Below, one piece after another: positions 1,074 to 53,608 of a DNA stretch of 64,000 nt; within the stretch, counting starts at the first letter, position 1; every line of letters starts with the position of its first letter. Origin of the DNA: a virus; IMG/VR virus record IMGVR_UViG_3300048927_000308, positions 26,091-90,090 of that record. One strand, 5' to 3'. The notes beneath the pieces are model-generated. The model saw nothing but the letters and a program-made list of their open reading frames with translations. It was not told where the DNA came from and did not search any database. Made by a program: the position numbers and the translations under genes.

Positions 1074-2432
1074 GTGAAAGACATTAAAGCACCTCCGCAC
1101 TCGATCGAGGCAGAACAGGCTGTATTGGGCGGTCTAATGCTCGATAACCAGCGCTGGGAAGAGGTAGCTGATGTTGTCACTCCGCATGATTTTTATACCC
1201 GGCAACATCGGATTATCTGGTCGGCGCTAGCGTCTCTGAGTGAAGCCGGGAAACCAATGGACCTCATTACCTTGACCGAGAAGCTGGAGGAGGAGGGGAC
1301 ACTGGATATTTGTGGGGGCTTTGCATATCTCGCTGAGCTTTCGAAGAACACTCCCAGCGCCGCCAATATCAGGGCTTATGCCGAGATTGTCCGCGAGCGC
1401 GCTGTAGTGCGCGAGGTAATAAGTGTATCCAATGAAATCGCGGAAGCTGGGTATTCACCGCAGGGCCGCAGCAGCGAAGAACTGCTGGATATGGCAGAAC
1501 GGCTGGTATTTGGAATCGCTGAGAAGCGCCAGAAAGCGGATACCGGGCCAAAAGACATAGCCAGCATACTCGACACGACAGTAGCGCGCATTGAGGAGCT
1601 ATTTCAACGCCCACATGACGGCGTTACCGGCCTCGACACGGGCTTTACCGATCTTAACAAAAAGACGGCAGGCCTCCAGCCATCTGATTTAATTATTGTT
1701 GCCGCACGCCCATCTATGGGCAAAACCACCTTCGCTATGAACTTGGTTGAAAACGCCGCAATTAACAGCGATAAGCCCGCGCTGGTGTTTAGTCTGGAGA
1801 TGCCTAGCGACCAGCTGATGATGCGCTCCTTGGCATCGCTGTCACGCGTAGATCAGACCCGAATTCGCACCGGCCAGGTTGACGATGAGGACTGGGCGCG
1901 TATCTCCGGCACCATGGGGATCTTACTGGAAAAAAGAAACATCTATATTGACGATTCCAGCGGCCTGACCCCAACAGAATTGCGCTCCCGCGCGCGGCGC
2001 GTTTATCGCGAAAACGGCGGCCTGAGCATGATCATGATTGATTACCTTCAGCTGATGCGTGTTCCAGAGCTGAAGGAGAATCGCACGCTGGAAATTGCTG
2101 AAATTTCACGTTCCCTGAAGGCTCTCGCCAAAGAACTACAAGTGCCTGTGGTGGCGCTTTCCCAGCTTAACCGCTCGCTGGAGCAACGCTCCGATAAGCG
2201 ACCTGTCAACTCCGATCTCCGAGAATCTGGTGCAATTGAGCAGGACGCTGACCTGATTATGTTCCTCTATCGCGATGAGGTTTATCACGAGAACACGGAC
2301 ATGAAGGGAATAGCGGAGGTGATTATCGGAAAACAGCGAAACGGTCCGATTGGTACCGTTCGCCTCACTTTTAATGGCCAGTATTCCCGCTTTGATAACT
2401 ACGCTGGCCCCGACTGGAAAGAGGAAGACTGA
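1074..2432 (+). CDS. ban: replicative helicase DnaB analog Ban
   Basis: PPHSIEAEQAVLGGL N-terminus, Walker A ARPSMGKT, DYLQLM, SDLRESGAIEQDAD. Confidence 0.97.
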   Translation: MKDIKAPPHSIEAEQAVLGGLMLDNQRWEEVADVVTPHDFYTRQHRIIWSALASLSEAGKPMDLITLTEKLEEEGTLDICGGFAYLAELSKNTPSAANIRAYAEIVRERAVVREVISVSNEIAEAGYSPQGRSSEELLDMAERLVFGIAEKRQKADTGPKDIASILDTTVARIEELFQRPHDGVTGLDTGFTDLNKKTAGLQPSDLIIVAARPSMGKTTFAMNLVENAAINSDKPALVFSLEMPSDQLMMRSLASLSRVDQTRIRTGQVDDEDWARISGTMGILLEKRNIYIDDSSGLTPTELRSRARRVYRENGGLSMIMIDYLQLMRVPELKENRTLEIAEISRSLKALAKELQVPVVALSQLNRSLEQRSDKRPVNSDLRESGAIEQDADLIMFLYRDEVYHENTDMKGIAEVIIGKQRNGPIGTVRLTFNGQYSRFDNYAGPDWKEED

Positions 2433-2722
2433 TGAAACGAAAACTGATTGCCCGCAATAAGATCAACGTTACTGGCGTGCTGCGATATGCCCGGCGCAAC
2501 TTTCTTTTCCCGAATGATGCCTCACGTATGGGCCGCTACCGCGCCGAGGTGCGCATGAAATTGCGTCACGAGCGCCGATTTGGTGCCGAACCTGATTTTA
2601 GCCAAGCAGAGCAGTGGGGCTTGTCGAGCAGCTTTATTATCCCGTGCGTCAGCTCCCGGGGGCTGATCTGCAAACACATCCTCGTTACCAATGAGAAACT
2701 GGAGGAAATGCGCAATGCGTAA
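2432..2722 (+). CDS. hypothetical protein
   Basis: Coupled to ban stop. Confidence 0.55.
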   Translation: MKRKLIARNKINVTGVLRYARRNFLFPNDASRMGRYRAEVRMKLRHERRFGAEPDFSQAEQWGLSSSFIIPCVSSRGLICKHILVTNEKLEEMRNA

Positions 2723-3011
2723 ATTTATGACCGTCACCATGCCGGATAACAGCGTATGGAAGATACCGACTGACGTAATCGCCCGTCACCGCGCCGCGTA
2801 TTACGCGAAAGAACACAACATCACCCTGGAAGAGAGCCTGACGCAATGTACTCAGCCGCTTTTTGACCAGTATCCGGACGAGATCGAGGATTGGGCCGAG
2901 AACAACATGAACTGGTCCGACGTTCAGCCGCACGCCACGATGGTTCGCCCCGGGGAAGTTGACTATGACGATGGCTGGGCAAACGGTGAAAAAGCATTTG
3001 TTGAGGCCTGA
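2715..3011 (+). CDS. hypothetical phage protein
   Basis: MRKFMTVTMPDNSVWKIP; GGAGG upstream; overlaps previous stop. Confidence 0.65.
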   Translation: MRKFMTVTMPDNSVWKIPTDVIARHRAAYYAKEHNITLEESLTQCTQPLFDQYPDEIEDWAENNMNWSDVQPHATMVRPGEVDYDDGWANGEKAFVEA

Positions 3012-3013
3012 AA

Positions 3014-3292
3014 GTGATGATCTACGTTAGGACCGCTCCGGCGCGCCGTAAACCGCAGAACGGCGATCAGAAGATGATTAAAGGCGTGCTACATGAGCGC
3101 ATTAGCACGCGCATCCTTATGCGGGGCTGGGATGAACAGAAAGGCGAGGGGTGCTATTACCTCGCCTGGGACAAAACCGGGGGCAGGCAGTGCTATGAAT
3201 GGGTGCCAGTAACAGATCTGGTTGGCCTCTCTCCTTTTAAGCGTCGCTATTATGCCGAAATAGATGGAAAGCATGACAACGTAACTCACTAA
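3014..3292 (+). CDS. hypothetical protein
   Basis: ORF track; operon continuity. Confidence 0.55.
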   Translation: MMIYVRTAPARRKPQNGDQKMIKGVLHERISTRILMRGWDEQKGEGCYYLAWDKTGGRQCYEWVPVTDLVGLSPFKRRYYAEIDGKHDNVTH

Positions 3293-3340
3293 TGCTTTAC
3301 GAGCTTACCTAAACACAAATAGCATCCCACTTTGGGATGA

Positions 3341-4051
3341 TTAAGCCCCTCCCTTATGGGGCTTTTTATTATCGGCTTCATCTTCTTGGTTAGGGCTAAC
3401 AGTACCTGCTTCAATTTGATCTTGAGTAATTTTTTTACCGGGCACAGCTATATCAACCATTTTATAAAGACCGCCTCTTAAGCCTGTAATGGCATCTCCA
3501 TTAATGAAGCCCCATAAAGTAAATAGTAGCCCTATAGAGAAAGCCGTAGCGAACAGTTTCGGCACTCCAGAAAACATGAATTTAAGTATTGCGAGGCTAT
3601 AAAAGGTGAAGTTCTCCACTATACCCACAGGCTTTTTAACCTGCTTGCTATACTTGTCAGCCCCAGCCATAAGGGCTTTCAGCGCTGTTCGCTCAGCATC
3701 CGCTACCTTTTTTTCAAGTTTCGCAATATCTTTCTTTTTCTCGTCTTCAAATGTTGCCAACGCAGCATCGAAACGAAGTTGTAGACTGCTGTTAGCCGCA
3801 GTTACATAACCATCAACTATGGCTTTTGCTTTGTCTCTAAATACATCAAGTTGCTTTTGAGAACTGAGGCAGTGGTCGTGATATTTCACTAATTCTGCAT
3901 TAATCTGCTCATCGGTTTTTTTCTCTTTACGCAGATTGCGAGCTTTTTCGTCCTTAAAACCTTTATAAATGGCATAGGAAATAAGCTGCTCGATATTGTT
4001 TGGGTTTTTAACGAGTTCAGTAAAAACCCATTTGTTTTTTTGCTGGCCCAT
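3341..4051 (-). CDS. AT-rich accessory membrane protein (helical N-terminus, C-terminal hydrophobic segments)
   Basis: 236 aa ORF, low GC, hydrophobic FYSLAILKFMF and LFATAFSIGLLFTLWGFI. Confidence 0.75.
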   Translation of the reverse strand: MGQQKNKWVFTELVKNPNNIEQLISYAIYKGFKDEKARNLRKEKKTDEQINAELVKYHDHCLSSQKQLDVFRDKAKAIVDGYVTAANSSLQLRFDAALATFEDEKKKDIAKLEKKVADAERTALKALMAGADKYSKQVKKPVGIVENFTFYSLAILKFMFSGVPKLFATAFSIGLLFTLWGFINGDAITGLRGGLYKMVDIAVPGKKITQDQIEAGTVSPNQEDEADNKKPHKGGA

Positions 4052-4103
4052 ATCTCACCAAAAAAAAAGCCCCTAAGAGGGGGCATTTAAAATTTAAAGT
4101 AAA

Positions 4104-4439
4104 TTAAGACTTGATTGTTTTACGAACCGCGTTAAAGGATTCTTGAAAGAATCCACGGCTTTGGCTCTGTGTCAAAGCGCTATCTTTAAGGATTTTGCGA
4201 GCCTTATCTGTTAGGGTAACGGTGCCGCCTGATACACAAGCGCGTGCTTCAGGCGTTCTATGTGATGCGCGCGTTTGACCCTCGCGACTTTTCGCGAAAC
4301 CGGCTGCTTTGGCACTGCCAATAACAGCACCTACGTTGTTTGTAACGATTTTTTGTGCAGCGACACTTGCCACAGCGTCAGCTGAAATTTTTCGAATTTC
4401 TTCCGGGCTGAGGGCTGGCATACGACGTGGATTGGTCAT
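4104..4439 (-). CDS. accessory hypothetical protein
   Basis: GAGGAG RBS before ATG 4439; followed by hairpin GCCCC..GGGGC + T9. Confidence 0.6.
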   Translation of the reverse strand: MTNPRRMPALSPEEIRKISADAVASVAAQKIVTNNVGAVIGSAKAAGFAKSREGQTRASHRTPEARACVSGGTVTLTDKARKILKDSALTQSQSRGFFQESFNAVRKTIKS

Positions 4440-4544
4440 TTTTCGCTCCTCTCTACTTTTTCTTAGTCTAACATTTGCAAAAATATTTGCATATTTTTTA
4501 GCGCACATCACTAAGATTGTGAGAGTCAATTTAGGTTCCCTGTT

Positions 4545-5153
4545 TTAGCCCTTCGCCACTGTAACCTGTGCGGCCTTTATCGCAAGTGTACCGCCAGACT
4601 CAATTCCCATATTGCCGCCAGCCTTGATATTCATATCACCGACAGCCGAAATAAACGCGTCACCCTGTGACATAGCGAATAGCTCCCCCGCCTCGTTAAA
4701 CCCGATCGTTGTGCCGCTGCCCATATGTGTGACCGACCAGCTGCCGCCCGCATTGCGGATCTCCATGAGGCCATTGCGCGAATAAACATAGTCTTTGGTA
4801 GCGCTGGTGGACGGCATAGCTGGTGCTCCATCTACATCAGGCGGTGTGTATCCGGTGCCCTGTCCGGAGGCCTCCGGAGGGACATTAGGCGCACCGCCGG
4901 AAGCATCCTGCGCGTAGCCAATAATGAGTGGCCAGCGTGAGTCGCCGTTATACGGAAACTCTACCCACACCTTATCGCCCGCCAAGAATGGGGAAAAGGT
5001 GTTCGCGTTCTGAAGGATGGTTTCTGCCCAAGGCAGAGCATTATCTGGTAGGCCAGCCATGAGCCCATCAACGCGGATCTGCGTGCGCATTAGCCCTTTC
5101 GGATCGTCAACACTGACAACAACCGCGCGATACTTCCCTGTAAAATTACCCAT
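4545..5153 (-). CDS. baseplate spike/assembly protein (P1 gp5-like, GpV OB fold)
   Basis: [31 protein letters not shown]; P1 synteny. Confidence 0.88.
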
Positions 5154-6162
5154 TAACCACTCCTAACTGTGCCCGCGTGACGTAGCGGAATCGCTCTTCA
5201 TAATGCGTTGCCGACGTGACAATCATTTTTGCCGGGACTGATTCGTCCGCCCCGCCATCGCCACCGACGTTATTCACAAGCACCTTAATCACATTGCCGG
5301 GCGTCAAGGCGCTGTTGCCTTCCACCAGCATATCGAACCGGGGCAGTATGAATTTGTTGTAATTTGCCAGCGCCATCGGATCAGGATTGCTGGTAAATTT
5401 AACCGGTGCGTCTTTGCTTCCCGAGTACACCACCCCTTTTGTCATATCGTAACTGGCCATCCGGTAGTTGTGCCGGCGCTGATATTCGTACTCGGCATTC
5501 AGGATGTTAAATTGGCTGATCGTGAGGCCTTTGGTGTTCGGATTGCCTGATTCGTAAGTCAACGTGGCATCGGCGTTAGTAAGCTTATCCATGCTCCGGA
5601 AATTAATGGCTCCGCGCGATACCCAGCACATGGAGCCGGTATCGCGGCCCATCTCCTGAAGTACCTGTGTGGGCTTCTCACCAACGTTCAGATGATAGGT
5701 GGATGTTTTCCTGAATGAGTCAGCGTTCACCTTCAGGGAAGGGGCTAATGCGCCCACGATGACGCCTGGCTGCTTATCGACAAAGTATTGCGGGCTGGTG
5801 GCCGGGATTTTCAGCAGACGAACGGCGTCACTGAAGGCGTAAATCATCACAGTGTCAGCTTGGCGCGGCGCTTTCAGTACGAAAAACTCTTCTGAGAAGA
5901 GTAGGCCACCGATACCCTCCGGATCGCCCATGGAAACCGTCAGCACTGTGCCAAACTTCACGCCGAGTTTGTTAACAACATACGCCGTGCTGTCTCGCAC
6001 GGTCAGCATCAGTTGCGGCGCTGTCAGCTGTCCTTGCTCCACATAAACGCATCCTACAATCATTTCACGAGGTATCTCGTTTTCGCCGATTTTTACACTC
6101 TGCAAAAAAAGTTGCGTTCTTTTTGATCCAGATGCTGGAGAGGACGTAATTTTCGTAACCAT
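5146..6162 (-). CDS. tail/baseplate hub protein (P1 gp6-like)
   Basis: 338 aa; P1 synteny and recalled similarity. Confidence 0.82.
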
Positions 6163-6294
6163 TCATAACATCCTGTATTGATTTGGAAGCTCCAATCCTT
6201 AGAATTTTTCTACCCCAAAAGTATTAGGGGTGCTGGCGTGAGAACCAGCCTCAAGAGGCCCGGCTAACAGCTGGGCCATCAGCTGTCTGTTCAA

Positions 6295-6368
6295 TGGCGA
6301 ACCGGACGAGGCCAGCTTTGTCTGGGCCGAACTTGATCGGATTCTCACCCTTGTCCGGTTCGCCACCA
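6295..6368 (+). ncRNA. C4-type antisense RNA
   Basis: 17-bp closing stem TGGCGAACCGGACGAGG/CCTTGTCCGGTTCGCCA (one G-U), two inner hairpins, TTCTCAC linker, 3' CCA; complementary target GTGAGAA..TCAAG at 6238-6255; promoter TTGATT-16-TAGAAT at 6178-6205. Confidence 0.72.
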
Positions 6369-6394
6369 GTCGCTGCTCTTTTATGGGAGAAAAA

Positions 6395-6628
6395 ATGCAA
6401 TTTCCTACCATCAGTCCGGAGGAGTTTTACGCAGCCTGCCGGGAGCTACATTTACCCCACACAGCAATCGCAGTTTCCGCTTTATCACGCCATTTCTTGA
6501 TAACACACCCTGAAAGTTCAAACTTTTGCCCTCGTTTGTTCCTTCGCTCACTAAAACGTCAATCACTGGCTTATATCCGTATCGCTCGCGCTAGGCGGGA
6601 GCCTCCCCCTGCTGCACTCGGGCTTTGA
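6395..6628 (+). CDS. small ORF downstream of the C4-like RNA (icd position)
   Basis: GGAG RBS 5 nt before ATG; antisense to the tail operon, 3' end overlaps gene 24. Confidence 0.4.
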   Translation: MQFPTISPEEFYAACRELHLPHTAIAVSALSRHFLITHPESSNFCPRLFLRSLKRQSLAYIRIARARREPPPAALGL

Positions 6629-7394
6629 CTGATATTCTGGCGTCTGTCTGGTTGACGTAGGAAAGCAACGGAAGGTCGGCAATAACATTAAGATCCAGGC
6701 CAACGGCAAATAACCGATTCTCTTCGGTCCCGGGAGTAAGATCCTCAAAAGCGATAGATTTTTGCCCGTTTATAACGCACTCCACGGACATGTCAGCACC
6801 TGCTAATTCGCTGGTGGCGGTAAATGAGGCCTGGCCTCGACTGGCATAAAAACGCAGCCAGAAGGCTAGGGCCGTAGCTACCATATTCAGCGATTCTTTT
6901 TCATCACTGGCTATCCATAGCGTGTAATCAAGTGATACCGGCATTGTCGCCACCAGCGCAGTAGTAGTGCCATTCTCATCAGATATTTGGCCATCGTCGA
7001 AGACATCGCGGCTCAGTTCGCCTTCATAAACTGAGAATGCTGGAGAGCGTGAAAGGTTGATTAGCGGCATAGCCAGCTTATTAACTTTTCCCGGAGGACA
7101 AGCACTATCTTTTCGTCCGGAACGGGAGGATTCAAAGGCCGCGAGCCAGGCGTCAACGCTACTGAATGTACCGAGTGTTATACGATCGCGAGGCGAGCGT
7201 TTCAGGAACTCACGGAATGACTTATTGGCGCGATCGGGAACCGATACAACCAGCGGCGCAAAGGCCTCATTCAACGCATCGGCAAACGCAGTGTCGATGC
7301 AGTCAAGCGTCAGAAATTCCTGTTTGCCTGTGGGTGTGAGCATCTTCTTTCGAAAGACGGCCAGCAGCCATTCCATTTCAACAAGAGTTGCCAT
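6591..7394 (-). CDS. tail/baseplate protein (P1 gp24-like)
   Basis: [35 protein letters not shown] as in P1 gp24. Confidence 0.85.
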
Positions 7395-8127
7395 CAAAAT
7401 TTCCTTCAAAAGCTCGTGAGGGCACGCAGTAGAATAGGCTGCCTACCTTCGAGGTGCCGTAGTTAAAGATGCGGTGTATGTACCAGAAGCGGCGCACAGT
7501 GGAGCCATCAGAAAGCTCTTCCAACCATTCCAGCATTGAGCCAACCGGGACGTTAACGGCTGCTAGACGCAGTATCAGCGCAGTATCGCTAATACCGGTA
7601 TTGTCGCTGTCATCGTAGAGCGAGCGGAAAGATTCCATTTCGTCAGGACAATCCAGCGCAGTAATGAGCTCCGGCTCCCGGTAGTCATAGATCTGTTGGT
7701 TAGGCTCGATCACTTCGGATGCCGTATCTGTTGTGCCGGCGCGCTGGTGGGGGACCGCCCGGTAAAGCACCGCGTCGAATGAATCAGGGTCTAATTTGAT
7801 GGCTTTGAGCCAGTCCATCCGCACCAGGTTATTAAATACTGCATGACCTTCATAACGGTGGCGCACACCAGAATCACTAAGCAGGCCGTGATCCAGATTG
7901 GGAATGTCAGGGTCCGCCAAACGATCAACAAAATTCCCAACGTCATCACCATCGCTTTCGATTTCAGCATCGTTTTCTTCCTCTTCCGTAAAATCGTCTG
8001 CATCGAGATCCACCAGCTCCGGTGAATCTTCCTGCCCATCATCCGTATTGGTGGCCGGGAGGGTATCACCGGTCATTTGTGGCGACTTCTCGCCCCCCTC
8101 AAACATATCGTCGAAAAAACCAGCCAT
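7378..8127 (-). CDS. tail protein (P1 gp7-like)
   Basis: [10 protein letters not shown] acidic N-terminus; synteny. Confidence 0.85.
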
Positions 8128-9737: not shown

Positions 9738-9764
9738 AATCACTTCCTGTGTAAATATGGCCAG

Positions 9765-10752: not shown

Positions 10753-11397
10753 ATGGATGCTAAACAGGTTGCATTAGGGATCCTCGATGGTATCTCCTCT
10801 ATACCAAATACAGCTTACATGGGTGTTGTAAGAAGCTGGGAGGGGAGCGGACTTGCCGGGGATAGCGTCAAACAAAGAAACCAGGCTGAGACGGAGCGTT
10901 TTTTCTATATGCTCAAAAGCCTGGGTAATGCTGAGTCACCTTTACGCAGGCTAATAACTATTGTTTTCACGTCCTTCTATCAGAAACTCAATGATGAAGG
11001 CAAAGAGGCCGTAAACAATAAATTGGGTTACGGAGCCGGAAGCGTTGGCGGGAGAACTGCTGGGCAAATTGCACTGGCTCAGACAACTGCAAGCCTGATG
11101 TTGAATCGCCTGGCGATTGATCAGGCGTATAAACATTTTGTCCGGTTCACTGCTTCAGCCGCGCTAAACGTCGTAATGTTTCAGGGAATCATTGAAGAAT
11201 CAGCCAGAGCATCAAGAAGGATGAGAGCCAAATATCCCTCAACTTACGCTAGGGTGTCCAAAGAGAATCTGGATATGGTCTACTTCCTCGTTGAAGATCA
11301 GTTAGAGCCTTACCTCGTGTTTATTGAAGGACACCCTATTGATTGCAAAGGAATACAGAATGAAATTTGTAAAATCGTTAATGTCCCACGCAATTGA
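10753..11397 (+). CDS. accessory hypothetical protein (Gly/Ala-rich helices)
   Basis: 214 aa ORF with RBS, opposite to flanking genes. Confidence 0.75.
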   Translation: MDAKQVALGILDGISSIPNTAYMGVVRSWEGSGLAGDSVKQRNQAETERFFYMLKSLGNAESPLRRLITIVFTSFYQKLNDEGKEAVNNKLGYGAGSVGGRTAGQIALAQTTASLMLNRLAIDQAYKHFVRFTASAALNVVMFQGIIEESARASRRMRAKYPSTYARVSKENLDMVYFLVEDQLEPYLVFIEGHPIDCKGIQNEICKIVNVPRN

Positions 11398-14522: not shown

Positions 14523-14539
14523 ATAACTATTAGAGCAAT
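14523..14539 (-). promoter_or_regulatory. C1 operator upstream of ref
   Basis: ATTGCTCTAATAGTTAT. Confidence 0.75.
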
Positions 14540-19757: not shown

Positions 19758-19774
19758 TAATTTATTAGAGCAAT
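19758..19774 (-). promoter_or_regulatory. C1 operator
   Basis: ATTGCTCTAATAAATTA. Confidence 0.8.
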
Positions 19775-19841: not shown

Positions 19842-19858
19842 ATTGCTCTAATAAAATT
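19842..19858 (+). promoter_or_regulatory. C1 operator overlapping a TTGACA promoter for the coi-c1 leader
   Basis: TTGACA directly overlapping ATTGCTCTAATAAAATT. Confidence 0.8.
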
Positions 19859-20030: not shown

Positions 20031-20159
20031 GTTGTGGGTGTAGCTTAAATGGTAGAGCGCCTCTTGAAGGAGGAGTTGAGCGCTGCCCAAGGTTCATTAC
20101 CCGGGGCATCTCATACGGCTGGCCAGACGTTATCCGGGTTCGAGTCCCGGCACCACAAC
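20031..20159 (+). ncRNA. tRNA-like element with ~60-nt insertion
   Basis: D arm TAGCTTAAATGGTAGAGC, T arm CCGGG-TTCGAGT-CCCGG, closing GTTGTGG/CCACAAC; irregular anticodon arm. Confidence 0.5.
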
Positions 20160-36396: not shown

Positions 36397-36413
36397 ATAT
36401 TTATTAGAGCAAT
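36397..36413 (-). promoter_or_regulatory. C1 operator
   Basis: ATTGCTCTAATAAATAT. Confidence 0.8.
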
Positions 36414-48800: not shown

Positions 48801-49644
48801 TTTCCGCCATCTCTTTCGGGTGCTTACGCATCAGTACGACATCAACGACGGTACTGGTGCCGTTGGCGTCAAAGGTGCCGGTCGGCAGCCGGTGCGCGCC
48901 TAAAAACTCAGCTTTGCGGGAAAGGCGCAGGCGCAGCCGCTTCATGTTGTTACCGGAAACGATGGACGGCGGCACGATTACGCACATGAAACCGCCTGGC
49001 TTAATCTTGTCAAGCATGCGCAGCATGAAGTAAGAGCCCATATCGGTTTCTTCCGCATATGGTTTATCCAGGTTGCGCGTGTTATCGCGGCCGCCAAACG
49101 GCACGTTGCCAACAACATGGTCGAAGGTGTCATTCGGGGTGGTTGATGCCAGCTGCTCGAAGGGGCTGATCTGCACGCTATCTTCAGGGTGAAGCAGCTG
49201 ATTGATGCGACCGGAAACCGGGCTGATTTCCGTGGCGGTCATCATTGTTCCCGCCGGTTTCGTTTCGTTGAAAACGCCGGTGCCTGCCGACGGCTCCAGG
49301 GTGTTGCCGACGTCTGCCCCATAGAGCTTCATGATCTCCCACACACCTTCTGCCACTGGTTTCGGTGTGTAGTATTCAGAGACGGAACCGCCGATCCCAC
49401 CTTCACCAGTATACCCGGCCAGCGTCTGGCGCTGTTCATCGGTTAATTCTGCCCCGTCTGCCAGGCTGTTTAGCAGTTCAACGGCCCGTTCGTTAGCCTC
49501 GCGGCGGAGACGGTCAAAGCTTTTGCCTTCGACCTTTTCAACGCCGAATGGCACCTGTTTTCGGCGATTGCTTATTGCTCTAATAAATCTAACGATCTCG
49601 CCGATGCTTTTGCAGGAGAAAACCCCGCTTGTAATGTCCGCCAT
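42880..49644 (-). CDS. darB: DarB antirestriction protein (N6 methyltransferase + SNF2 helicase)
   Basis: LEPSAGTG, GNVPF, GLGKT, DEGH, TATP, QRNGRGAR; ~2254 aa. Confidence 0.95.
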   Translation of the reverse strand: MADITSGVFSCKSIGEIVRFIRAISNRRKQVPFGVEKVEGKSFDRLRREANERAVELLNSLADGAELTDEQRQTLAGYTGEGGIGGSVSEYYTPKPVAEGVWEIMKLYGADVGNTLEPSAGTGVFNETKPAGTMMTATEISPVSGRINQLLHPEDSVQISPFEQLASTTPNDTFDHVVGNVPFGGRDNTRNLDKPYAEETDMGSYFMLRMLDKIKPGGFMCVIVPPSIVSGNNMKRLRLRLSRKAEFLGAHRLPTGTFDANGTSTVVDVVLMRKHPKEMAERVALAEESTLEAANVLWPTFITGKWFERDGRRFVHGTQEKGFQGRIEVRADGQIDNQALKAKLIHRFDSRINWSMLDIDEPQPTADVIDERELRLINGVWHSFVGGRWIEADSGKELVIDSARFGADSWEALQRNLTTAEGRLAMTFDQMANVRQQYTSSMSDDMVQLVDWINSQPEKYRDRLYRGAMIGRMLIEYQDMKAAGQSEYDIEQRRLSLVAKIQAEIDRYGNPGRGPIAKLSGSGARAWFAFRGAIKLDGTISDELTGKLVTHDDSASYDSTSYQDTLRYLYSDLTRDPIQLDDFRQAFTGDLPGSDDQLLDLLANTPGIAVSPYGGIVPFARATSGDLNEIIAPKQAFLAQLPDGAVKNNVLNQLAAIEEKRVKTPAESIRFKLNSRWFDRSVILEFLQESGYPDLRYVQSVQLEGDEMVSETYHGGDGLFVGHRYGVVQRKDKESGEIRYEWDKKSGDNATGFPAQLEKYLNGARIGGKDGATANGYREQAALLEDQFNKWIKTHDRYDELVAKYNDVFNSNIPYEHSGNSLGLTGISGRRNPFDYQNSEVRRLSEDGRGILGFGTGLGKTTTALALEAFNFENGRSTRTAYVVPKSVLENWYYETKEFLSEQAFSNYLFVGLDVLMDGDHIRQVPVLDENGKQVMNDDGTPVMRDGLKLADEATITARMNAIPHSNYRAVVFTKEQYARIPLRNETVDEHAEDMLFDFVAAGRVASAMESDSHRKEAARRRVLSEYSDTGTEKAEKYPYFEDMGFDSVIADEGHNYRNSYKNGREASQLAYLPTSAVAQSARDMAIKNAYLMKKNGGRGPVLLTATPVVNTPIDAYNMLSHVLPKEFWQKMGIFGPDDFVKFFGKTRLETVQKISGEVEEKMALVGFENLDALRGIFHRWTTLKTAEDVKDTVEIPELDERQQDAPLTAEQLDAYEELRKQAEAAANADNGMATIVQEDGTTTQEKARPIFSIIRDMDRVCTDMDLYHRRITYRFLPEYADAVQQLADSLPKQATSEDDESDESVTQQAQYSLIDKGDFIQLQVPEAFEPEVNKRLAKFGIDERTITHPVTPKYAKLIATLKEFFPEGKQIIFTDEKTQHQKLKRIICNALNIDSSQVGILNAQTVADAGKSGKKLKTVKPPKDLPDEPTEAQLAKYHEQMALYDAYIAQQNEMSLGGLEKIAADFQEGRTPIIICNKKAEVGINLHRGTTDIHHLTLPWTPASIAQRNGRGARVGSNRASVRVHYYCGKGSFDEYRLKTLKRKAGWISDILRSDKSEMENADANDMIEMQMYTAKNDGERLAMMQVQMDKAKAAQLARQKEQATVDLQNYIKAQHAAGEDVEALTVQLENNKTELEEATADVARYRQLVLAKAAENEEWKARWGSVYSSDRLLLSQYRNSLKTAIRRKAALTSAISQREKLLARTKKASTDIKRLRPLVEDAINKGLVNADPDLINHGKDFLVIGDKSWRVGQYYENNGDIVLIKALDFDTQRADVEVIFSSKGSKSSSWPVKLLQQQVDVTPDEAAVMGKISGGVSIAGINALISRDDFYRFQQRGMLKITDSYAMQTSDQGYTMEFVSSSDTVQNVVYPDRTDGALKSAIAKWALGFMAAGQTYKINSAEAFLTELFGSDYLDVISSYGESLSPEDIQERIVAEIAKLPATAPEGSTRNGDSEVEVANAIFNSYPFRASSFELGTSEFGAISVYSNKAEIKAAMDAANARIAAERQANLDHAVEVLAQSWVTAIKGAVATSKITPAIAEVVNNGAKFMVAYQNGSMQMPTAYGMTTNHPTYNLVAMFADLAILKLVDLSEITPTLLSARKNYLDVLTRVADLLRGRTDEQKAEDADRINLALGNITEEEIAARNAQQEEIAVGQGDATRTAQALGLNYRVSTADLKMMYAPKFAAGEVFGLQEASGQKGVLFRAKDELKEKFGARWLPAKAKNSDFPGNWWIIEKKHNAADVLAVINQYA
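49574..49590 (+). promoter_or_regulatory. C1 operator inside darB 5' end, upstream of prt
   Basis: ATTGCTCTAATAAATCT. Confidence 0.7.
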
Positions 49645-51432: not shown

Positions 51433-52447
51433 CGTTCTGAAGACGGTAACTGACCGTTTTTGTCTTTATAAAAACGCGCGCACCGGCCGCCAGAACGGCC
51501 GCAAATACGTGCTGGGTGCGGTAAAGGCCATGCTGGAAAGCAGAGAGACTCAGGAGGGACTGCGTCTTGGCGAGCTGTATGGTTACTATGGCCACGGGCG
51601 CCGCGAAATGACCGGTAAACTGGAGTTGCCGGAAACAAGCGTAATCATGGTAGAAGGCCGCCCGGTTGTTATCGACAACGTGCCAGCCTGCCGCACGGTA
51701 TCCATCTCCGTAGATGACAACGGCGTTGTGACCCACACGCAGGAAATTCTCAACACCGAACCCGGCAAAATCGTTGCAGCGATGATTGAAAGCCGTGCAG
51801 GTGGCTGGAGCTGGGCGACCGGCGGCCGCCAAGCGGGTAACATTGCCGTTACCACCAGCTTCCATGGCGTGGACTATGTAACCAACCCGAACTACGTAAG
51901 CCTCGATCACCCTGCAAGCGCGGGAATGTTCGAAAGCGCAGACGCACAATCCCTTCTCGCCGAGTCGCTGGCGGCACATGGTTACTCTGATGAATCGGTG
52001 CAGGCGGTGATCAGCCACTACGGCAAGCTGGCGGAGCTGGAGCTGATGATGGAAGCGACTGAGCGCAACGCTGAGCTGGAAACTGCGCTGCTGGAAAGCC
52101 AAGGGCGCTATCTGGAAGCGCAGATGCGTCAGAAAGAGGCTGAGGATCGGATCGCCCTGCTGGAAAGTGCGGCGGGTGTGCGTGATGATGTGCTGGTGGC
52201 CATTCAGAACGAACTCGATAAGTTGCCGATTTTTGTAACCAGCAGTCAGAAAGAGGCCTTTAAGTTGAAGCACCCGGACGATGCGGCAGTTGTTGCGTCA
52301 CTGTTCGAATCGTTGATAAAAGTCGGTGCCCGCCATCTCCCACTAACGCCACCAACTGAAATCTCACAGCCGCAGCCGCGCCAGAAGGTTCCGGAACCTG
52401 CCAGCATGATCACCTTCGGCAAGACAACAAACCCCTTCGCAAAATAA
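51425..52447 (+). CDS. pro: head processing protease
   Basis: GYYGH, GWSW, DYVTNP. Confidence 0.88.
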
Positions 52448-52460
52448 TTATTAGAGCAAT
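52444..52460 (-). promoter_or_regulatory. C1 operator
   Basis: ATTGCTCTAATAATTAT. Confidence 0.75.
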
Positions 52461-52585: not shown

Positions 52586-53608
52586 ATGCCATATTGCGCT
52601 GTTAAAAACAAAACTTTTTCTTTTAATAATGACGGTTCTTTCAATCAGTTCGGCCTGAAAAGCGTAATTCAGGAGATCTCCCCAAAATTACTTCGTCCGT
52701 CTGAAAAATATATCCTAATGCTTGCCAGCGAACATGCCACCGCCAGCGCTAAGCTCTGCATCTTCAAATCCCTCCAAACTATTGCTGATGATTGTGGCGT
52801 CAGCAAAGACACCGTTCGTCGTTGTCTCTCTCGCTGCGTTGAAATGGGCATACTCACAAAAGAGTTTGTGATCGATGAAGCAACCGGCAAACAGAAACCC
52901 TGCCTGTATACTTACACTCCGCTTTTCATCCGGATTGCGAAGGCGTTTCGTCGTCTTGCCGACAAACTCAAAAGCCGTCGTCAAAAAGATTTCAAAGATG
53001 CCCGCTCCCGTTTTAACACCCTGCTCGAACGCATGGTGTTCCGTGTCAAACTTGGTCTTTTCTCACTTAAAAAGAAGCTCTTCTCTAAGGGGTACCCTCC
53101 TAAATCTGTCGTAAAAGAGGGGTTGCAAAACGCTACCCAGGAGGGTGGCAAAATAGAGCCCAATAATGTACTTACTAATAAAGTAAATAAATACGCAGCC
53201 ACTGACGTCGGCGCGAAGCGCGACGCAGTTGGCGATCATGAAAATCAAAAAGCAGCACGAAAAGATAAGCCAGAAAATGGAGCTATCCGCTTCTTTCAAG
53301 ATCTCGCAAAAAATTTCTCATCCATCGCGACACGCAGAATGGAGGAAAATAAAAAATTAGTTAAAGGTTTTTCGTTAGAGCAAAATAGTGTCAAGCACGG
53401 CAAACCGCTGCCAGAACGCCGTGCTGGGAAAGCCCCCCAGGAAGGGTTTAACCATACCCGCTTCCTGAAGGCCGATCGGATAGCTGAACAGCAATGGGAA
53501 GAACGCCAGCGGATCGCGCGTGATAACCCACGGGAAAAACAGATTCAAAAGCTCGCAGAAATCAGGACTCTTCTGGATAATGCGAAGGCACAAAAGGTAG
53601 GAATATGA
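52586..53608 (+). CDS. wHTH replication-initiator-like protein
   Basis: SLQTIADDCGVSKDTVRRCLSRCVEMGIL..LY; basic C-terminus. Confidence 0.65.
   Translation: MPYCAVKNKTFSFNNDGSFNQFGLKSVIQEISPKLLRPSEKYILMLASEHATASAKLCIFKSLQTIADDCGVSKDTVRRCLSRCVEMGILTKEFVIDEATGKQKPCLYTYTPLFIRIAKAFRRLADKLKSRRQKDFKDARSRFNTLLERMVFRVKLGLFSLKKKLFSKGYPPKSVVKEGLQNATQEGGKIEPNNVLTNKVNKYAATDVGAKRDAVGDHENQKAARKDKPENGAIRFFQDLAKNFSSIATRRMEENKKLVKGFSLEQNSVKHGKPLPERRAGKAPQEGFNHTRFLKADRIAEQQWEERQRIARDNPREKQIQKLAEIRTLLDNAKAQKVGI

Follow-up and report, generated by a model that had tools for sequence, protein, structure and literature searches.

A C4-Type Antisense RNA Cassette Inserted Against the Tail Operon of a P1-Like Phage

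Introduction

C4 is the textbook antisense RNA of phage immunity, which it sets by silencing an antirepressor. In the characterized immI loci of the phages P1 and P7, which comprise Op51/Oc4, P51a/P51b, a1, b1, c4, a2, b2, icd, and ant1/ant2, C4 is encoded just upstream of the operon that it silences, and the role of the a1/b1 pair has been a standing question since 1990. In this paper, we describe a cassette with a C4-type RNA in a P1-like phage, located at positions 6178–6628 of a stretch of 64,000 nucleotides (nt) which is referred to as the window (bases 26091–90090 of the 90,090-bp IMG/VR virus record IMGVR_UViG_3300048927_000308); all positions are those of the window unless stated otherwise. 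From 5′ to 3′, the cassette would be composed of a promoter, a three-hairpin leader carrying a1 and b1, a tRNA-like C4 RNA with an RCCA end, a terminator-like stem with a U-run, and a small open reading frame (ORF), orf77. A previous reading of the bare sequence (the original prediction) had regarded the element as an orphan C4-type RNA lying antisense inside the tail operon.

A comparison with immI shows the same order of promoter, a1, b1, C4, and small ORF, the latter encoding 77 amino acids here and 73 in P1. In both cases a1 comes first, with b1 following after 6 nt here and 7 nt in P1. The sequence complementary to b1 (b′) is placed in the loop of hairpin 2 and that complementary to a1 (a′) in the junction of the RNA, as in P1, and the tRNA-like closing stem, the RCCA 3′ end, and the P1-like host phage are shared as well. 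However, the C4 sequence and its loops are unrelated to those of P1 C4, and, unlike immI of P1 or P7, the cassette is devoid of a C1 operator at the promoter, an a2/b2 pair, an Icd-like ORF, and an ant gene in the genome. Moreover, immI of P1 is located between sim and kilA, whereas the cassette separates the tail genes 24 and 6 and is encoded on the strand opposite to them.

Two further RNA elements and one class of phage inserts invite comparison. The c4-a1b1 motif (RF03163) and IsrK, the leader RNA of Gifsy-1 (RF01394; PMC4825925), represent structured leaders 5′ of C4, and the c4-a1b1 motif is described with an a1 loop on the second of its hairpins and with b1 just 3′ of it (Weinberg et al., 2010; PMC2864571). 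The cassette resembles both in carrying such a leader with an a1 loop and b1 on its 3′ side, yet neither model recognizes it, although both match the leader of the nearest relative without the insert. Furthermore, IsrK has a terminator between leader and C4, whereas the terminator-like element of the cassette follows C4. With phage morons, the cassette shares the properties of a small, lineage-specific insert with its own promoter-like site and a small accessory gene at a gene boundary of a late operon. Yet morons consist of promoter, gene, and terminator, whereas the cassette appears to carry a complete antisense-RNA switch, is oriented opposite to the operon, and extends into the 3′ end of gene 24. 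As judged from the sequences compared, the occurrence of a sole C4 in a phage without icd and ant, facing into the tail operon and associated with an orphan cargo gene, is new.

Results and Discussion

A C4-Family RNA With a Matching a1/b1 Leader

The RNA is a genuine member of the C4 family with the a/b topology known from P1. Its sequence (6290–6370, + strand) matches the Rfam model RF01695 with 56.4 bits (gathering cut-off, 45 bits) and E = 3e-8 over the whole window, which bears out the C4 assignment of the original prediction. The same model scores 50 bits in Cronobacter phage JK004 (MZ188976) and 60.7 bits in the metagenome contig L099 (50.6 kb), which make up, together with the window, the three insert-bearing loci compared here. 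By homology with the annotated c4 of P1, mature C4 is expected at approximately 6296–6368. The region 6294–6369 folds with −40.9 kcal/mol (z = −5.6) into the cloverleaf already proposed from the letters, with a 17-bp closing stem and two hairpins, and its 3′ end reads GCCACCA (6362–6368). The pairs of C4 (helices 5–7) are kept across the three relatives.

Within this fold, b′ (CTTGA, 6332–6336) forms part of the hairpin 2 loop, and a′ (TTCTCAC, 6342–6348) belongs to the unpaired junction; they are exactly complementary, over 5 and 7 nt, respectively, to TCAAG (b1, 6251–6255) and GTGAGAA (a1, 6238–6244) further upstream. When the 82-nt leader was shuffled 200,000 times with its dinucleotides preserved, this ordered pair arose in 78 cases, the pairing energy of −13.2 kcal/mol is attained by 0.08% of random windows, and GTGAGAA followed by TCAAG within 40 nt is unique in the 90-kb record except for the antisense of C4 itself. 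Both the complementarity and the P1/P7-type arrangement that had been pointed out beforehand, in which b1 comes after a1 upstream and a′ after b′ within the RNA, are thus recovered.

The leader folds into three hairpins; a1 occupies the loop of the middle one, and b1 follows directly on its 3′ side, unpaired. Hairpin 1 (6212–6231, minimum-free-energy fold) is partly kept in L099 (helix 1, 80% of cells paired). Hairpin 2 (6232–6249) presents a1 in an 8-nt loop that is invariant in L099, and its stem shows one compensatory change from G-C to A-U at the base. The single-stranded b1 starts 6 nt after a1 and is invariant in the three relatives, and hairpin 3 (6257–6277; helix 3) contains two compensatory pairs and one change from G-U to A-U in L099. 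No U-run follows hairpin 3, unlike the terminator-ended isrK leader. As a separate observation, the leaders of the C4 loci of two other P1-like IMG/VR records, G001 (L104, 1501–1702) and G003 (L105, 1501–1711), match isrK, and that of G001, the nearest relative without the insert, also matches c4-a1b1.

Around C4, the minimum-free-energy fold predicts an outer helix (6280–6289/6367–6375, + strand) directly followed by CTCTTTT (6376–6382). This helix (helix 4) is 100% paired in the three relatives, and all three loci possess the U-run, which is one T longer in L099. Outer helix and U-run together look like a terminator, and the U-run may alternatively pair with the Shine-Dalgarno (SD) sequence of orf77. 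A consensus terminator scan of 5900–7000 did not call this element because its stem exceeds the limits of the scanner.

The + strand promoter named in the original prediction was located at 6178–6205 (TTGATT-16-TAGAAT) and represents a candidate constitutive promoter, termed Pc4. It is the sole sigma-70-like site found in 5900–7000, with a score of 9/12, which is not significant alone, as shuffles yield 0.8 such sites on average. Pc4 is identical in JK004, while L099 shows TTGACC as −35 sequence and a different −10 region. An operator scan of the window found no C1 operator within 5 kb of Pc4, the nearest ones being located at 979–995 and 14523–14539. Contigs of four sequencing runs, all identical to the window, revealed no variants, RNA ends, or joints.

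The conservation of these elements is uneven. No segment of the insert is better conserved than C4, which shows 89% identity to L099, compared with 83% for gene 6, 81% for gene 24, 77% for the leader, and 69% for the promoter region, and a1, b1, a′, and b′ are invariant in the window, JK004, and L099. The stems of the leader exhibit three compensatory pairs in addition to several changes from G-U to Watson-Crick pairs, and 96.5% of the cells are paired, a value which drops to 27–45% when the partner is slid by 1–3 columns. Taken together, these values are supportive of C4 and its a1/b1 partner being maintained under selection, with a covariation signal that is still thin.

The Only C4 in a Lineage Lacking Canonical immI

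The record is collinear with JK004, a complete, circular genome of 93.8 kb, at 65–94% (mostly 82–94%) nucleotide identity, and its proteins are typically 60–85% identical to those of phage P1, pointing to a P1-like phage; according to its database record, JK004 is a phage isolated on Cronobacter sakazakii. The searches described in this section cover the 90-kb record (G000) apart from about 3.5 kb, in which a second, canonical c4-icd-ant locus is unlikely, since the complete genome of JK004 contains none.

Only one C4 match is present in the whole record, and only one, at the same place, in the complete genome of JK004. The simC-rlfB block of P1 (46.6–53.4 kb; sim-c4-icd-ant-kilA-repL) is without a homologue in the record, in which the pmgC homologue terminates at position 9745 of the record and the following homologue of a P1 gene starts at 10962. 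A six-frame search of the record did not reveal any ANT/KilAC, Bro-N, Icd-like, or RepL domain, and neither ANT nor Icd was found in JK004, while ant1, kilA, and icd of P1 served as positive controls in the domain searches. The antirepressor noted earlier as missing downstream of C4 is therefore absent from the entire record. The RNA had also been called an extra C4, supposedly coexisting with a separate immI locus, which does not hold, since it is the sole C4 in both the record and JK004 and no separate immI exists. The lineage is thus devoid of canonical immI and of the lytic replicon at the position known from P1.

In the relatives, the picture is different. G001 carries a C4 of 80.9 bits at about 7.4 kb from bplA, which is close to the spacing of 7.7 kb in P1, and G003 contains two C4 loci, the examined one being followed by ORFs of the size of icd and ant. 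Among these few genomes, the presence of the cassette seems to go along with the absence of the canonical locus.

At the site where P1 has simCBA-c4-icd-ant-kilA-repL-rlfAB, two minus-strand ORFs are found outside the window (G000:C1:9745-10962). They encode 162 amino acids and 214 amino acids, the latter with a short SimA-like N-terminal stretch, and are adjoined by a C1-operator-like sequence, ATTGCTCTAATAGAAAA.

Insertion Between the Tail Genes 24 and 6

The cassette is flanked on the left by the homologue of gene 6, coding for a tail protein (5146–6162, − strand; 77% amino acid identity to P1 gp6; phrog_1390, 4.5e-142), and on the right by that of gene 24, coding for a baseplate protein (6591–7409, − strand; 64.6% amino acid identity to P1 gp24; phrog_1767, 5e-101). 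The gene 5 homologue, assigned by P1 homology, is located at 4545–5153 (− strand), and genes 7, 25, and 26 follow beyond gene 24, with a conserved Lpa-type late promoter upstream of gene 26. The cassette occupies the opposite (+) strand and is convergent to this late operon, 26-25-7-24-6-5, as had been recognized from the sequence.

From the ATG of gene 6 (6162) to the stop codon of gene 24 (6591–6593), both on the − strand, the gap amounts to 428 bp, matching the approximately 430 bp of the original prediction. In P1, a single base separates the stop codon of gene 24 from the ATG of gene 6, and the two genes likewise abut in each of 80 further P1-like loci taken from IMG/VR. In the nearest of these relatives (85% gp6 identity), a spacer of 36 nt lies between them, the 3′ part of which is still discernible beside the start of gene 6 in the window. 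This remnant places the insert at approximately 6186–6596, and with a size of about 410 bp it fills the 428-bp gap. JK004 and L099 carry this insert as well, equally oriented and with orf77 overlapping gene 24 tail-to-tail by 38 nt, and the insertion is lineage-specific.

The Cargo Gene orf77

The gene following C4 spans 6395–6628 (+ strand), with its last 38 nt overlapping the 3′ end of gene 24. A further ATG at 6383 is lost in L099, and the start is therefore assigned to 6395, behind the SD sequence GGGAG (6385–6389). Its length is 77 codons in all five versions available, i.e., those of the window, JK004, L099, P0001, and P0002. P0001 is a homologue with 63% identity encoded on a 91-kb Logan contig and was used together with the window sequence in the profile and fold work. 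The codon changes are mainly synonymous, both against JK004 (15 synonymous, 6 non-synonymous) and against L099 (24 synonymous, 15 non-synonymous), showing that orf77 is a real gene under purifying selection. It adjoins C4 in three of the three loci compared.

A word-indexed protein search with orf77 returned one cluster, and a full HMMER search of 1.84 billion representatives yielded its own small family plus three long repeat proteins. In one of these, P0005, the match corresponds to an EF-hand-like "SPEEF..AC..L" helix and was taken as non-homologous. Searches by tblastn gave no match in plasmids and JK004 alone among phages, and peptide scans of IMG/VR and GTDB gave none. The product is not Icd-like, as the model NF033153 did not match at E ≤ 10 (P1 Icd as control, 3.4e-14) and BLASTP produced no alignment.

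The AlphaFold2 model, which is of moderate confidence (predicted local distance difference test score, 70.8), consists of four helices, the C-terminal one being basic, and the product is predicted to be soluble, basic, helical, and not hydrophobic. These properties make a type-I-style toxin unlikely, contrary to the toxin/antisense switch suggested at the outset. Foldseek found no match to the model in the PDB and BFVD, and the top fold in VIA-align was an E2F/DP winged helix (Z = 6.6), below the reliability guide of the tool, which gives a weak hint at a DNA-binding (winged-helix) fold.

Proposed Function of the Cassette

The explanation we favor, with a confidence slightly better than even, is that of a self-contained C4-type antisense cassette which was acquired horizontally, became inserted against the tail operon, and probably acts as an immI-like switch. 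By analogy with P1 immI, Pc4 would fire in the lysogen, and RNase P together with 3′ trimming would release a C4 RNA of about 73 nt. This RNA would then kiss a1/b1 on newly made leader transcripts, and the kissing complex, the terminator-like stem, and the pairing of the U-run with the SD sequence might jointly hold orf77 low in established lysogens. In newly infected cells, a burst of orf77 expression would be expected before C4 accumulates. As the canonical immI block is absent, the cassette would stand where an immI function would otherwise be lacking.

Control of orf77 by the cassette is judged likely, albeit unproven, because the position of C4 matches immI and the ORF lies where icd would be. 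Expression of orf77 could be limited by the terminator-like outer helix with its U-run and by the pairing between U-run and SD sequence, both of which are conserved.

Several observations weigh against an immI-like switch. The pairing of a′ with GGGAGAA (6385–6391) in the ribosome-binding site (RBS) of orf77, which had been put forward in the original prediction, does exist at 6 of 7 positions, but comprises just 5 contiguous bp, and only GAGAA is conserved there, L099 having TGGAGAA. For a′ at this RBS, the summed energy amounts to −7.6 kcal/mol, a value attained by 12% of random windows, and the match is weak, unconserved, and no better than background; moreover, no b2 site was found at orf77. 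A convincing a2/b2 pair is thus absent from orf77, and direct silencing of the a2/b2 type is unproven. Regarding the leader, neither the Rfam model c4-a1b1 (RF03163) nor isrK (RF01394) was matched in 6100–6700, even at E ≤ 10, while the canonical leader of G001, used as control, matched both, c4-a1b1 with 52.7 bits. The covariation is derived from three closely related loci, and 23 of 500 shuffles reach the observed score. Finally, no homologue of known function was detected for orf77 by searches of Pfam, PHROG, and NCBIfam, which gave no match at all, or by HMMER.

If the immI-like switch does control orf77, C4 cassettes may be regarded as portable regulators that can be rewired to new cargo, and orf77 would become a candidate for a new factor in lysogeny or in the interaction with the host. 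Otherwise, the conserved C4-a1/b1 pair must serve a purpose beyond a2/b2 silencing. A phage without Icd, Ant, KilA, and RepL still keeps one C4 with its a1/b1 partner, at a new site and upstream of orf77, and since JK004 has been cultured, the question is directly testable.

Alternative Explanations

A role of C4 in the regulation of tail genes appears rather unlikely, although two routes may be envisaged. In cis, a transcript of C4, leader, and orf77 would be complementary to the 26-25-7-24-6-5 mRNA where genes 24 and 6 meet and along the 3′ end of the former, and genes 6 and 5 could be expressed at a lower level or become uncoupled through pairing or transcriptional collision. All three loci share the convergent orientation and the 38 nt of overlap with gene 24, and no + strand terminator was called 3′ of orf77, i.e., after 6628, by a simple-hairpin scan within 5900–7000, as would suit such a role. 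However, the full complementarity is an automatic consequence of the insertion and need not be functional, and JK004, having been obtained as a phage isolate, presumably expresses genes 6 and 5.

In trans, ribosomes could be kept off the baseplate gene bplA by a′. Between the SD sequence and the ATG of this gene (G000 4005–4012, − strand) lies GTGAGAAT, which is exactly complementary to a′ over 8 nt and has ATCAA 12 nt downstream. Among 340 start-codon windows, it is the best a-site, the next best extending over 6 nt, and it is absent from P1 and G001, both of which lack this C4. Yet about 0.2 of the 8 other GTGAGAA copies in the record are estimated to coincide with an RBS by chance, 5% of random windows attain its combined energy of −8.9 kcal/mol, and the site is known from just two sequences, which are 98% identical. 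That such matches arise by chance is also seen from an a/b-like site of 7 + 6 nt antisense to a rep-like gene (53049–53066), which was dismissed as it is not conserved in JK004. Little could be learned from an energy-ranked, genome-wide target search with extended probes, as kissing sites are too short to be conspicuous in it. The match at the bplA RBS should therefore be taken as a lead rather than a finding. The RBS region of bplA lies outside the window and reads AGGAAGTGAGAATTTAAAATG (G000:C1:3988-4012, − strand). That both routes act together, C4 having been rewired from an antirepressor to a C1-independent RNA lock on virion genes, with the GTGAGAAT/bplA pairing and the antisense 24/6 junction allowing a constitutive prophage RNA to gate tail assembly, is very doubtful.

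Equally improbable would be a trans-acting immunity decoy, the silencing of heteroimmune phages having been considered in the original prediction. In this case, C4 would silence an icd/ant-type operon with matching a2/b2 sites in a heteroimmune phage, and orf77 would be a passenger. Work by Citron and Schuster from 1990 (cited in PMC2864571) is said to have established that C4 acts in trans in P1 and P7 and sets immunity specificity, which is compatible with a decoy, as are the lack of a good internal a2/b2 target in the cassette and the existence of an IMG/VR relative (G003) with two C4 loci. However, IMG/VR and the GTDB species genomes yielded neither another instance of this loop pair nor a two-part target: the loop pattern gave 21 matches in IMG/VR, all of them coding look-alikes, and a stricter version gave one chance match in the GTDB species genomes, on a contig of a metagenome-assembled genome. 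Apart from JK004 as the only phage match, blastn detected a C4 on a Mycetohabitans plasmid, which is unrelated (77% identity over 77 nt) and has an uninformative context. Moreover, a decoy leaves the purifying selection on orf77 unexplained.

That the cassette is a decaying, non-functional remnant, namely the 5′ end of a foreign immI-type operon truncated on insertion, is suggested by the missing or decayed a2/b2 sites, the leader escaping the c4-a1b1 and isrK models, and the lack of a following ant gene, but has little probability, since C4 exceeds the essential tail genes on either side in conservation, the leader shows compensatory changes, a1, b1, a′, and b′ are invariant, and orf77 keeps its 77 codons in five versions, with an excess of synonymous changes.

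Other Features of the Window

Sites fitting the P1-type C1 operator consensus with at most 3 mismatches occur 16 times in the window, compared with 0.11 expected, e.g., at 979–995, 19758–19774, 19842–19858, 36397–36413, and 49574–49590. The C1 regulon thus appears to be retained despite the loss of immI. One operator (52444–52460) marks the start of a region reaching to 54138, in which it is followed by genes for a 340-amino acid HTH_36/RP-C-like protein and a 177-amino acid protein with a ProQ/FinO domain. Neither of them has a P1 homologue, and the genes are candidates for a replacement of the missing kilA-repL lytic replicon.

Within the long leader upstream of coi-c1, a sequence at 20034–20157 matches the Rfam tRNA model (32.9 bits), with 60 nt inserted into its anticodon arm, and may represent a tRNA-like processing element. 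Finally, the region at 2432–4529, where P1 has dbn downstream of ban, harbors five ORFs without P1 homologues, three of them on the + strand (96, 106, and 92 amino acids) and two on the − strand (236 and 141 amino acids).

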